Shown: one piece after another, positions 35,599 through 38,662 of the stretch
How the letters are laid out: each line of letters starts with the position of its first letter
How positions within the stretch are numbered: position 1 is the first letter of the stretch
Assembly (NCBI RefSeq): GCF_042096255.1
Contig: NZ_JBELLZ010000003.1
Span: forward strand, 18,104-82,103
DNA: 64,000 nucleotides
DNA from: Sphingomonas sp.
Lineage (GTDB): Bacteria; Pseudomonadota; Alphaproteobacteria; Sphingomonadales; Sphingomonadaceae
Reading direction: 5' to 3'
Notes under the pieces: model-generated
Told to the model about the DNA's origin: nothing
The model's input: only the letters and a program-made list of their open reading frames with translations
Databases searched by the model: none
Translations under genes and position numbers: made by a program

Positions 35599-35673
35599 TC
35601 CCTGATAGCTCAGCGGTAGAGCTCTCGACTGTTAATCGAGCGGCCGTAGGTTCGAATCCTACTCAGGGAGCCA
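35599..35673 (+). tRNA. tRNA-Asn (GTT)
   Basis: TCCCTGA/TCAGGGA acceptor stem, ctcga-ctGTTaa-tcgag anticodon arm, GGTTCGAATCC, encoded CCA. Confidence 0.98.
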
Positions 35674-35746: not shown

Positions 35747-36520
35747 TCAGGCGCTCAGGCGCGCCTTCTCGTGATAACTGGCGAGGGCCTGACTCAGGAA
35801 CGACCAGAAATACTCACCGGCCGTCTTCTCGAAGCTGTCGCGATAGTGGGTGCTGTCAAGAAGCGCGGCTTGCTGATCGTGCTGGACCAGCATGTCCTTG
35901 GTCGAGAATTTCGGAATGCCGTGCTTGTGCCCGACCTCCGAAAGCAGTTCGGACAGGCGCTCGCGCGCGGGCAGCGGATTCCCATCCTTGTCCAGCGCAT
36001 GAATGTGGTCGCAGATCGTGACGGGTGCCTGAACCTCCGCACCGATGGCGCGCAGATTGCCCACGATATCGGCTTCCGATTCTTGGGCGAGCTTTATGTC
36101 GCGAAGGGGGTGCCCTGCCGGCCAGGGCACACCCCGTTTGGACGTGGATGCGCGATTGTCGAGTCCGAGTGCGTCCGCCGCAGTCCAAACCTTCGGCACG
36201 TGGACGAACTCACCCGCGACGGTGGCGACCTTCAGGGCGGAAATCTCGACCAGAACCAGATCGATGTCGCGAACGGAACCGGGTCGCGCGAGCGACGGCG
36301 ATTCCTCCCGGTCAGGCACATCGACGAACGGACGCAAACGCTCGTCCAGCTTCAGGGATCCCCGGATCAGGCGCACATATTGCAGTCCTTCCCCGGAAGA
36401 GTGGGTGAACCACGGCTCCTCCTTGTTCGCGAAGTCGATCACGCCAAGCTTGTGCAGGGATCGCAGCGGACGTGCGATCCGGCAGCTGCCGACGGCGAGA
36501 ATGCGGGGTTTGGTGGCCAT
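35747..36520 (-). CDS. Hypothetical protein, possibly SGNH-like (GSCR...DxxHY)
   Basis: ILAVGSCRI at N-terminus, DLVLVEIS, LLDSTHY near C-terminus. Confidence 0.7.
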   Translation of the reverse strand: MATKPRILAVGSCRIARPLRSLHKLGVIDFANKEEPWFTHSSGEGLQYVRLIRGSLKLDERLRPFVDVPDREESPSLARPGSVRDIDLVLVEISALKVATVAGEFVHVPKVWTAADALGLDNRASTSKRGVPWPAGHPLRDIKLAQESEADIVGNLRAIGAEVQAPVTICDHIHALDKDGNPLPARERLSELLSEVGHKHGIPKFSTKDMLVQHDQQAALLDSTHYRDSFEKTAGEYFWSFLSQALASYHEKARLSA

Positions 36521-36609: not shown

Positions 36610-37026
36610 TTATGGCATGCCCGATGCTTCCAGCCAGGCCGCGACAAGGCGGTCGGCCTTATCGGTCAGTTCCACGAGGTGACGACGTCGGTCAACGGGA
36701 TCGGGTCGGCGTTGTACCAGGCCGTCGTCACACAGTAGCTTGATCCAGCGAAGGCCAGTGGTCGCGGGCACCCGGCCAGCAATGCACGCTCCACTGATCG
36801 TCACCTGGGTCCGGGTCCGCCGCGCCACGAACAGGTCGATGAGCATATATGCCCCGGCGCTGCACAGGTGCCCGGGGAACAATGACTGCCCGAGGTCCAC
36901 CTGGCGTAGTACCCGGCGGGCCACCGACACCAGGTCAGGCGACCCGTTAGCCACCCCGGCGCCCCCCGGTCGCGTGCCCGCGACGTGACCCGTCCCGACG
37001 CGGTCCGTCGCCGCCGCGCCGGTCAC
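36610..37026 (-). CDS. MarR-like winged-helix DNA-binding protein
   Basis: MLIDLF, ISGACIA..VPATTGLRWI..L...GLVQR.PDPVDRRRHLVELT; true start may be GTG 36954. Confidence 0.82.
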   Translation of the reverse strand: MTGAAATDRVGTGHVAGTRPGGAGVANGSPDLVSVARRVLRQVDLGQSLFPGHLCSAGAYMLIDLFVARRTRTQVTISGACIAGRVPATTGLRWIKLLCDDGLVQRRPDPVDRRRHLVELTDKADRLVAAWLEASGMP

Positions 37027-37441
37027 GGTCGCGCCTCCAGTCGATCAGCACTCCCAGCAGCAGCACGCCCATCTTGGGCAGCGACCAGACCACCTCCAGG
37101 ATGAAGTACACCCGGAAGGCCAGGGCGGGCGCAAGCATGGCGCTGAAATGCGCGCACACCGTCAGCACATGCAGGCCCGCAAGCCAGATCGGCCAGTATC
37201 GGCGACTGCGTAGCGCCACGACGTACAAACCGAGGAGCAACACCGTGTCTATGGCGAATACCAGATAGTTCGGGCTGGCCCAGCGCCAGTCGACGTAACT
37301 GGCGCCGGTTGTTGAGACATATGCGGTTACGTACAGGAGCGCGGTCCATCGGCCGGCGGTTCCTCCAAGTAATGCTGCGGTGCCGCACGCGACGGCGACC
37401 AGCGTGGCGAACAGAAAGGGAGAGGCCGAAACCAGCCACAT
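36947..37441 (-). CDS. Hypothetical integral membrane protein (about 4-5 TM)
   Basis: Alternating hydrophobic segments; ALRSRRYWPIWLAGLH; basic C-tail. Confidence 0.82.
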   Translation of the reverse strand: MWLVSASPFLFATLVAVACGTAALLGGTAGRWTALLYVTAYVSTTGASYVDWRWASPNYLVFAIDTVLLLGLYVVALRSRRYWPIWLAGLHVLTVCAHFSAMLAPALAFRVYFILEVVWSLPKMGVLLLGVLIDWRRDRDRRGGDGPRRDGSRRGHATGGRRGG

Positions 37442-37463
37442 CGGACGGTCTCAGCCGCCGCGA

Positions 37464-37838
37464 TCAGGCGACCACCGGTTCCTGAACCGGGGCCTGAGCG
37501 CAAACGGCGGCGCCGCCGGCGTGCGCGTCGCTGTTGATGGGACAAGTCGCCGCGCAGCCCTCCAGGACCGGCTGAGCCCCGAACGACGGCGCCATGGCGC
37601 GAAGCAGCTTCAGGGTATCGCCGACAGCCCAGCGTGCATCCAGCATCTTGGTGGACGTTGCGTGCAGCGCGGCAAACACCCGGTGGGTATCGCTGAAGGC
37701 GGCATTGGCATCGCGCGCTGCGGTGACGACCGAGACGAACAGCCGCTGGTTGGCCAGCAGGGAATCATCATGGCTGCGGATCAGATCCTTAACTTCGTCG
37801 GAGATCATCGCAGCGGCAGGTATCGGGACGTGCGGCAT
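37464..37838 (-). CDS. Hypothetical helical protein with Cys-containing C-terminal tail
   Basis: RBS GGAGGAG before ATG 37838; amphipathic helices then EGCAATCP...VC. Confidence 0.78.
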   Translation of the reverse strand: MPHVPIPAAAMISDEVKDLIRSHDDSLLANQRLFVSVVTAARDANAAFSDTHRVFAALHATSTKMLDARWAVGDTLKLLRAMAPSFGAQPVLEGCAATCPINSDAHAGGAAVCAQAPVQEPVVA

Positions 37839-37863
37839 TCCGTGCTCCTCCAACGCTCCGCGT

Positions 37864-38319
37864 CTAGGACGTCACCCACAGCAGGCCCGCGCCCGTCACT
37901 GCCAGGGCGACGACGAAACTCAGGCTCACCGCGGCGACCCGAACGATCGCGAGCGTCTTCTCGATCCAATTGAGATCATGTTCAGGTCCGCTGATCGGCG
38001 GCACCGAGAACAGCCACCGAACTCCGGCGACGGACCGAGCAAGCCGTGTCCGGACAATCCCGCCAACCCCCGACGATCTGGATTGAGAAGTCGATCCAGA
38101 ACATTCCGCCGCTCTTGTCTCCGCCTCGAGAAACATCCGTGCCGCCTCCTGCCGCGAGGCGGCACCGAGAAGCCGGCTGGCCCGCGACAGATAGGTGTCG
38201 ACAGTTCCCGGCGAGAGGTCGAGCTCGCGCCCGATCGCCTTCGAAGCGCTCATGCCGCGAGCCACCAGCCGCAGGCATTCGATCTGGATCGGCGTGAGTT
38301 CGGTAAGGTCGGCAGCCAC
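37864..38319 (-). CDS. LuxR-type HTH regulator with C-terminal transmembrane helix
   Basis: LTPIQIECLRLVARG..SKAIGRELDLSPGTVDTYLSRA...LGAASRQEAAR; C-terminal hydrophobic VAAVSLSFVVALAVTGAGLLWV. Confidence 0.88.
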   Translation of the reverse strand: MAADLTELTPIQIECLRLVARGMSASKAIGRELDLSPGTVDTYLSRASRLLGAASRQEAARMFLEAETRAAECSGSTSQSRSSGVGGIVRTRLARSVAGVRWLFSVPPISGPEHDLNWIEKTLAIVRVAAVSLSFVVALAVTGAGLLWVTS

Positions 38320-38506
38320 TTGGTCCCTCCGAAACGGAGCATACCGAACCCCGCCGCAGAGTCGATGACGCCACTTTCCCGATTCGGTCCGCTGGCTTCC
38401 TCAAATGGGTTATGCGACCATCGGAAACGTGGATCGCTGCGCGAGATTGCTCCGGATCGGAGTTCAACCTAGGTGATGTCCCAACTCGGTCGCGGGAACC
38501 TTGGCA

Positions 38507-38662
38507 ATGGCGGAACAGCTTCAAGATGCATTGCGCCTGATGCAGGAGGCGATGGTGCTGCTGGATGCGGCGGGCGAGGACGTGGTGGCCGCGCACCTCG
38601 ATCTCGCCGTCCAGCGGCTGATCGAGATCGTGGGTCACGATTCCGCACGTCGCATGCGTTGA
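38507..38662 (+). CDS. 51-aa small helical protein (not in ORF track)
   Basis: Translated by hand: MAEQLQDALRLMQEAMVLLDAAGEDVVAAHLDLAVQRLIEIVGHDSARRMR. Confidence 0.65.
   Translation: MAEQLQDALRLMQEAMVLLDAAGEDVVAAHLDLAVQRLIEIVGHDSARRMR

Follow-up and report, generated by a model that had tools for sequence, protein, structure and literature searches.

A group of genes on the minus strand of a 64,000-nucleotide (nt) stretch of Sphingomonas sp. DNA (contig NZ_JBELLZ010000003.1; the whole stretch is hereafter called the window) encodes what appears, with a probability of about 0.5, to be a transcription-control module specific to the Sphingomonadaceae lineage, in which three core proteins would act as one cognate set. 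The three proteins are LuxR-TM, a predicted DNA-binding protein with a transmembrane (TM) anchor, Mid, a small helical protein with a Cys-bearing tail, and TM4, a polytopic membrane protein. The genes of this triad are adjacent, co-occur, co-diverge and are duplicated as whole sets.

The first gene of the triad, luxR-TM, is located at 37864-38319 (-) and encodes 151 aa. It is followed by the gene for Mid at 37464-37838 (-), which gives a protein of 124 aa from the ATG at 37838, or of 129 aa if the frame is extended to the TTG at 37853, and by the gene for TM4 (164 aa) at 36947-37441 (-). A preliminary description, made from the sequence alone, had listed four tightly packed minus-strand genes, and all four open reading frames (ORFs) are present at 36610-38319 with the spacing reported. 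It amounts to 25 nt between LuxR-TM and Mid (ATG start) and 22 nt between Mid and TM4, and TM4 overlaps the fourth, accessory gene by up to 80 nt; the 80-nt overlap is also found in the closest ortholog locus, L070.

In a scan with one genome per species, the order LuxR-TM, Mid, TM4 was observed in all 23 complete loci; these come from Sphingomonas, Sphingobium, Blastomonas, Novosphingobium, Erythrobacter and Qipengyuania, and the profile hidden Markov models employed were built from loci of the same genus as the window. Gene calls in related loci were made with ORF and GC3 heuristics. The triad is also adjacent and co-directional in 12 loci of the same genus, where the middle protein is helical and about 120 aa long, and TM4 homologs are present in 19 of the 61 Sphingomonas relatives searched, often in two or three copies. 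Of 401 genomes sampled from the order, 190 contain TM4. Mid was detected in 160, always together with TM4 and never in the 211 genomes that lack TM4 (Fisher P = 1.4e-81). The TM4-positive genomes of this sample belong to 40 of 96 genera, all within one GTDB family (Sphingomonadaceae), and about half of the genomes of the family carry the module, with one to four sets per genome. All 30 of the best Mid matches that were checked have TM4 on the same strand, 21-142 nt downstream of Mid. Among 401 genomes taken across the Alphaproteobacteria, one further genus has the TM4 family, with LuxR-TM and Mid adjoining. The earlier account had allowed that the genes might not co-occur elsewhere; Mid and TM4 decisively do, and dozens of genomes show the same gene order.

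The three proteins are divergent, with mean pairwise identities of 25-29%. Their distance matrices, compared over 30 non-redundant sets, are strongly correlated (Mantel r = 0.73-0.83; 0 of 2000 permutations as high), with paralogs sharing genomes in the sample. This correlation indicates that the sets were inherited and duplicated whole, with no shuffling between paralogs.

LuxR-TM matches the Pfam GerE/LuxR helix-turn-helix (HTH) family PF00196 over residues 8-63 (E = 1.5e-11, 44.2 bits against a cut-off of 23.5), and its nearest solved relative among PDB sequences is the C-terminal domain of NarL (E = 4e-4). The HTH is N-terminal and the remainder of the protein is made up of a linker and a TM segment. 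Searches of Pfam and NCBIfam revealed no autoinducer-binding domain; nor was a receiver domain found, the NCBIfam response-regulator matches covering the C-terminal HTH only and lying far under the cut-off. Sigma-70 region 2 is likewise missing, the sole sigma match being a weak, sub-threshold one to Sigma70_r4_2, and the comparison with PHROGs gave only a generic HTH/sigma-factor match (E = 3.9e-7). The only strongly hydrophobic segment comprises residues 123-141, after which 10 residues remain to the C-terminus. In 35 members of the family the post-TM length is 0-21 residues, which means that there is no periplasmic sensor domain. Since the post-TM segment is short and the TM helix single, LuxR-TM can be taken as a tail-anchored protein with a cytoplasmic HTH.

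The linker between the HTH and the juxtamembrane motif is of low complexity and variable, ranging from 30 to 100 residues across the family. The motif itself is conserved in the family alignment, with the form PPxGGxRNxL in most members and VPPISGPEHDL in the window. As judged from these comparisons, the predicted architecture of LuxR-TM is a LuxR/GerE-type DNA-binding domain, a flexible linker and a tail-anchor TM helix, in agreement with the initial assignment of an HTH of LuxR type without autoinducer or receiver domain and with a C-terminal TM helix. A Cys in helix 1 of the HTH (ECLRLV) is retained in 53 of 59 proteins; in canonical LuxR/NarL HTHs the equivalent residue is Val. In two close Sphingomonas genomes (L007:1940-2956 and L008:1949-3010), LuxR-TM and Mid share one frame, of 338 and 353 aa, respectively. 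An internal ATG precedes the Mid part, and the joint frame may reflect a lost stop codon and not a true fusion; a true fusion would place Mid outside the membrane.

The AlphaFold2 model of Mid, based on the family alignment, is an antiparallel two-helix hairpin (helices 6-43 and 48-86) with a disordered tail (predicted local distance difference test, pLDDT, 79). The 80-residue hairpin is the best conserved part, and the invariant residues D24, R69 and G94 are found within or just past it; the tail varies in length and sequence, and in a subgroup Asp or Pro takes the place of Cys. In the window the tail reads LEGCAATCPINSDAHAGGAAVCAQAPVQEPVVA. The general tail motif is aromatic-Gly-[Cys/Asp]-x3-4-Cys-Pro, together with a hydrophobic-Val-Ala C-terminus, and tails are of two types: the aromatic-Gly pair is followed either directly by Cys (GCP), or by Asp or Pro with Cys-Pro 4-5 residues further on. 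The sequence LEGCAATCP of the window protein is compatible with both. A tail Cys is present in 53 of 60 Mid proteins and Cys-Pro, often as G-C-P, in 41 of 60, so that the 124 aa helical, Cys-tailed protein of the earlier account is borne out by the hairpin model and by a tail Cys that is largely conserved. The C-terminus ends in [VAIL]-Ala in 31 of 60 proteins, commonly as LRVVA; such hydrophobic-Val-Ala ends may resemble C-terminal degradation or docking signals.

No member of the Mid family has a signal peptide, an export signal or an N-terminal hydrophobic segment. The alignments contain no HxxxCxxC motif of the kind with which ZAS (zinc-binding anti-sigma) factors bind zinc. Mid has no match in Pfam, NCBIfam, PADLOC or PHROGs, including 21 members scanned singly against Pfam, and a Foldseek search of the PDB with the model returned only generic coiled coils and helical bundles, none with E < 1. 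Mid is thus modelled as a cytoplasmic protein, with a hairpin of two helices and a disordered tail that bears Cys.

TM4 is predicted by AlphaFold2, again from the family alignment, to form a compact bundle of five helices (pLDDT 87; predicted template modelling score, pTM, 0.77). Lys and Arg cluster in loop 1 (mean K+R 1.65), loop 3 (1.46) and the C-terminal tail (4.65), with means of 0.08 in the N-terminus, 0.38 in loop 2 and 0.0 in loop 4; this distribution implies a five-helix protein with the N-terminus outside and the C-terminus inside. The periplasmic loops are variable and 5-8 residues long. The invariant residues are G26, D65, S79, R81, W83, P84, W86 and W119; D65 (in helix 3) and W119 are buried, most of the others lie on cytoplasmic loops and no loop invariant is periplasmic. 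Five of them constitute the signature S79-x-R81-x-W83-P84-x-W86 on a cytoplasmic loop, with the family form S-x-R-[YW]-W-P-[IL]-W. The earlier prediction of a protein with four or five TM helices and the motifs WPIW and VCAH was therefore right as to the helices, of which there are five, and as to WPIW, which is part of the family signature; VCAH is not conserved, H98 being lost in the Novosphingobium and Erythrobacter branches. The family has no invariant His or Cys. A Cys in helix 1, near its cytoplasmic end, is less strongly conserved (38 of 62).

As with Mid, no match to TM4 was obtained in Pfam, NCBIfam, PADLOC or PHROGs, nor in Pfam scans of 26 single members, and Foldseek matches of the model in the PDB were to generic folds, none with E < 1. 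ICMT/PEMT-like, rhomboid-like and CAAX-protease-like identities were considered and rejected, having neither Pfam nor fold support. A profile search of 1.84 billion representative proteins retrieved 2,204 TM4 clusters at 50% identity, 1,312 of them at E <= 1e-10; the 150 best matches are all single-domain proteins of 105-195 aa.

The intergenic region upstream of luxR-TM (38320-38506; 187 nt) contains the palindrome CTCCG-N3-CGGAG twice, at 38327-38339 and 38450-38462, and is a putative operator region or the source of a 5′ untranslated region (5′-UTR) hairpin. The proximal copy overlaps the Shine-Dalgarno sequence of luxR-TM and pairs across the ribosome-binding site. The 3.6-Mb genome contains 17 copies, the number expected by chance genome-wide; at a density as low as this, two copies within 187 nt are not expected. 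The palindrome is preserved in the orthologs L016 and L070. Palindromes of at least 5+5 nt that begin at -46 to -35 relative to the luxR-TM start, with a sequence specific to each lineage, were found in 9 of 18 independent lineages, against a background of 2.4 per such interval; none of 300 mononucleotide shuffles reached 9. These palindromes may represent set-specific autoregulatory operators or a conserved 5′-UTR hairpin, and either would fit the sequences. Scans for sigma-70 promoters and terminators gave nothing above shuffled sequences, and the only hairpin reported falls within the LuxR-TM coding sequence; an Rfam search of the sequence matched only the tRNA.

If the triad does operate as one cognate set, LuxR-TM would be held at the inner membrane beside TM4, and TM4 and Mid would control how active it is by oligomerisation, sequestration, or release or turnover, a control logic similar to that of sigma/anti-sigma pairs or ToxR/ToxS. 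The cue would probably be intramembrane or cytoplasmic, because both membrane proteins have at most a few residues in the periplasm. Thiol chemistry (redox, electrophile, metal or haem) would be the most likely input; it is the leading candidate because Cys residues are conserved in LuxR-TM helix 1, in the Mid tail, in the accessory winged-helix protein and, less strongly, in TM4 helix 1. The output would be transcription, and would include autoregulation via the lineage-specific palindrome immediately 5′ of luxR-TM. The MarR-like gene of the window, or the RadC/JAB peptidase gene found in other copies, may provide a second, optional regulatory layer. The self-contained membrane signalling circuit suggested by the preliminary description thus survives as a conserved, membrane-associated regulatory gene set; its reading as a Cys-tailed precursor with a processor is not supported.

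Several observations weigh against such a mechanism. The co-divergence of the three proteins is expected of any co-inherited operon and is no proof of contact. The conserved cysteines could be structural, and they are missing from 7 of 60 Mid tails and, in helix 1, from 6 of 59 LuxR-TM proteins. The palindromes could be RNA hairpins and not operators, and that of the window itself is at -20, outside the -46 to -35 interval. A more ambitious proposal is doubtful, if worth stating: that the module represents a new class of signal transduction, in which a tail-anchored LuxR-type factor would be gated by a five-helix protein and a Cys-Pro-tailed coiled-coil sensor of a cytoplasmic or membrane thiol-reactive cue, and which would have expanded into insulated paralogous sets in the Sphingomonadaceae in the manner of extracytoplasmic function (ECF) sigma/anti-sigma pairs.

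A role in conflict, defence or addiction, with TM4 as a membrane-damaging effector, the HTH proteins as regulators or antitoxins and Mid as a sensor of invaders, is unlikely. Some features speak for it: several divergent paralogous sets occur per genome, Mid evolves fast, the accessory gene varies between RadC/JAB and winged-helix types, and the chromosomal site of the module differs between genomes. One ortholog is adjacent to TIR and caspase-like genes and another to AlpA/DUF87 genes. Against this, Mid and TM4 match nothing in PADLOC or PHROGs, and the match of gene 1 to PHROGs is generic; TM4 was found in none of 50,697 phage records, and 72,556 plasmids yielded three weak matches only. The flanks, which differ by genome (tpiA/SurA, glnA, NAD kinase/MoaA, CFA synthase, SecDF), have a housekeeping character: the 122 flanking proteins of 29 loci fall into 140 heterogeneous Pfam families, the 25 commonest of which include no integrase, transposase, phage or defence family. 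In one genus, moreover, the module has a single copy, in syntenic position beside the pho/pst operon, and it is present in about half of the genomes of the family. Judged by this genomic context, the module behaves as a regulatory system that resides in the chromosome and has duplication as its mode of expansion, unlike mobile or defence elements.

Peptide signalling of the AgrD/AgrB type, as put forward earlier, would require that the Mid tail be cut or cyclised and exported by TM4, and that the signal be read by LuxR-TM. The disordered, mostly Cys-containing tail and the small polytopic membrane protein encoded next to it accord with this scheme, which is nevertheless highly improbable. Mid has no leader, and its conservation peaks in the hairpin and not in the tail, where Cys gives way to Asp or Pro in a subgroup. 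TM4 matches neither AgrB nor any other peptidase in Pfam, and its invariants (G, D, S, R, W, P, W and W) include no His or Cys, those in loops being cytoplasmic; LuxR-TM, with at most 21 residues beyond the membrane, has no receptor domain for an external peptide. The notion of a precursor and its processor is therefore not supported. There is an equally slim chance that LuxR-TM is a structural factor tethering DNA to the membrane, for example by anchoring a chromosomal site, with TM4 and Mid as assembly partners. An HTH on a flexible linker could bind DNA at the membrane, and no obvious regulated target genes are conserved beside the module. GerE/LuxR HTH domains, however, are established transcription-factor modules, and the expansion of co-diverging paralogs with lineage-specific, promoter-proximal palindromes is a better fit to insulated regulatory sets.

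A counterpart of the module was absent from Pfam, NCBIfam, PADLOC, PHROGs and the PDB sequences and folds, and a full-text literature search, patchy for subscription journals, found no description of such a system; the view that it has no characterised equivalent was upheld to this extent. Its nearest functional analogues may be ToxR/ToxS-type membrane one-component regulators and ECF sigma/anti-sigma pairs. ToxR/ToxS, TcpP/TcpH and CadC likewise have a DNA-binding domain on one TM helix and a small, co-encoded membrane partner, and LuxR-TM, like them, probably acts on DNA while membrane-bound. The analogy with ToxR and CadC, drawn already in the preliminary description, holds loosely: these proteins possess an OmpR-type winged helix and a periplasmic sensor, whereas LuxR-TM has a LuxR/GerE HTH and 0-21 post-TM residues, its partner has five helices and belongs to an undescribed family, and a third, cytoplasmic hairpin protein is obligatory.

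ECF sigma/anti-sigma pairs, including ZAS redox sensors such as RsrA, also consist of adjacent cognate genes forming co-evolving, insulated sets. The LuxR HTH is related to sigma region 4, as reflected in the weak Sigma70_r4_2 match, and Mid, as a helical partner with a conserved Cys, could be a thiol switch. LuxR-TM, however, lacks region 2 and hence is no sigma factor; here the DNA-binding protein itself bears the TM helix, and Mid lacks the zinc motif of ZAS proteins. ArnR and ArnR1 of the archaeon Sulfolobus acidocaldarius are membrane-bound HTH regulators with C-terminal TM helices (PMC6396743). Compared by description only, they resemble LuxR-TM in the N-terminal HTH, the C-terminal anchor and the paralogous copies, and differ in being archaeal, in their HTH class and in being described as one-component regulators (PMC6396743). 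With AgrB/AgrD the module shares a small protein with a Cys towards its C-terminus, encoded beside a small polytopic membrane protein; homology to AgrB, a catalytic His or Cys, an export signal and an external receptor are all missing from TM4, Mid and LuxR-TM. Irr and other proteins carry Cys-Pro haem-regulatory motifs, and the Cys-Pro in the disordered segment of 41 of 60 Mid tails recalls them, as a resemblance of the dipeptide only; there is no homology to these proteins and no haem-related gene context.

What had been presented as a four-gene unit is retained as the three-gene core, since roughly one locus in two has the MarR-like gene and only a few have the small divergent ORF. In related loci, TM4 is followed by the gene for the winged helix-turn-helix protein (wHTH), by a RadC/JAB gene, by both or by neither; about 15 of 27 loci have wHTH and five have RadC. 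In the window, wHTH is encoded at 36610-37026 (-) and has 138 aa. It matches HTH_27 (29.1 against a cut-off of 22.2; E = 1.2e-6) and remains below the cut-offs of MarR (18.4 against 24.6) and MarR_2 (18.6 against 27); its nearest solved structures are distant MarR proteins (E about 0.01). A match of wHTH in PADLOC-DB 2.0, the only one there for the module, was at chance level (E = 0.026). The protein is thus a MarR-like winged helix, as supposed, and may be a full member of the MarR family; the Cys in its ISGACIA motif, also noted before, is retained in 21 of 25 relatives.

A stand-alone wHTH paralog of 199 aa is encoded elsewhere in the same genome, between a lipase-like gene and pyrB (C105:7747-8346, +). 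It contains the family motif FAEPAWDILLDLY, of which the wHTH of the window has the degenerate form LCSAGAYMLIDLF. Some paralogous sets (L005, L011, L013, L029 and L030) have a gene for a RadC/JAB-type metallopeptidase, with an HNHPSG motif, 3′ of TM4; in L011, RadC and wHTH share one reading frame. A protease layer acting on a protein of the module is conceivable.

On the other side of the control region, and divergent from luxR-TM, lies small53 (38501-38662, +), which encodes 53 aa from a TTG or 51 aa from the ATG at 38507; the ATG start gives the 51 aa ORF and the 187-nt region of the earlier account. The product is predicted to be helical and has the motif LLDAAGEDVVAAHLDLAVQRL. An intact ortholog, 59% identical, is present in the syntenic locus L070 (2175-2369, -), and none was found in loci L016, L015 and L071. 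Similar small ORFs accompany modules or wHTH paralogs at L009:849-1106, L010:2435-2626, L030:8760-8948, L040:6607-6810 and L069:6468-6689, and a small53-like ORF (C105:8335-8706) is convergent with the stand-alone wHTH paralog described above. They represent one family of small ORFs, helical and 50-120 aa in size, with the common motif 'L..LL/LD .......AAHL..AI..L', which may be a partner of wHTH regulators. small53 itself is a loosely associated accessory and is outside the core.

The locus is surrounded by ordinary genes, namely those for tRNA-Asn, NAD kinase, MoaA, a CC0125-family lipoprotein and SecA. Between tRNA-Asn and the module there is a 257 aa gene (35747-36520, -) with weak similarity to the TviD N-terminus (E = 9e-8, far under the cut-off), in a region of slightly lower GC content (0.62-0.64). 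It was considered as a member of the operon and rejected, being absent from L070 and all other loci; it represents a lineage-specific insertion. The idea of a mobile island at the tRNA-Asn gene (35599-35673) was also dismissed: neither a direct repeat of the tRNA end nor an integrase was found, the GC content does not break clearly, and the closest relative (L070) has its module at the same MoaA/NAD-kinase site, without the 257 aa gene.

In a genus with small genomes (g37; L048-L055, e.g. L050:6895-16242), the triad is single-copy and syntenic. The genes phoR-pstS-pstC-pstA-pstB-phoU-phoB follow it immediately on the same strand, and ku, ligD and an ECF sigma gene precede it; this arrangement could point to phosphate signalling, but may be mere synteny. 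Two records named as Betaproteobacteria, a Hydrogenophaga intermedia metagenome-assembled genome (L023) and Acidovorax delafieldii CCH4-A2 (L027), contain the module with the same flanking families as the Blastomonas loci L020, L021 and L026. Transfer to the Betaproteobacteria was rejected as an explanation, all the flanking genes being common to Blastomonas loci; these sequences are probably Sphingomonadaceae DNA that is mis-binned in, or contaminates, betaproteobacterial assemblies.

The Sphingomonadaceae are major environmental, plant-associated and pollutant-degrading bacteria. Apart from the generic HTH, the module consists of parts for which there is no family model, no structure and no described function, and the analysis defines two new protein families, Mid and TM4, the latter with about 2,200 clusters at 50% identity. 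The module would be a membrane-tethered transcription factor with its partners, built from these two undescribed families. A tail-anchored LuxR HTH with two obligatory partners would add to the short list of bacterial couplings between membrane and transcription. Because the cognate sets co-diverge and the lineages have promoter palindromes of their own, the system is directly testable, and its sets could serve as orthogonal regulators.

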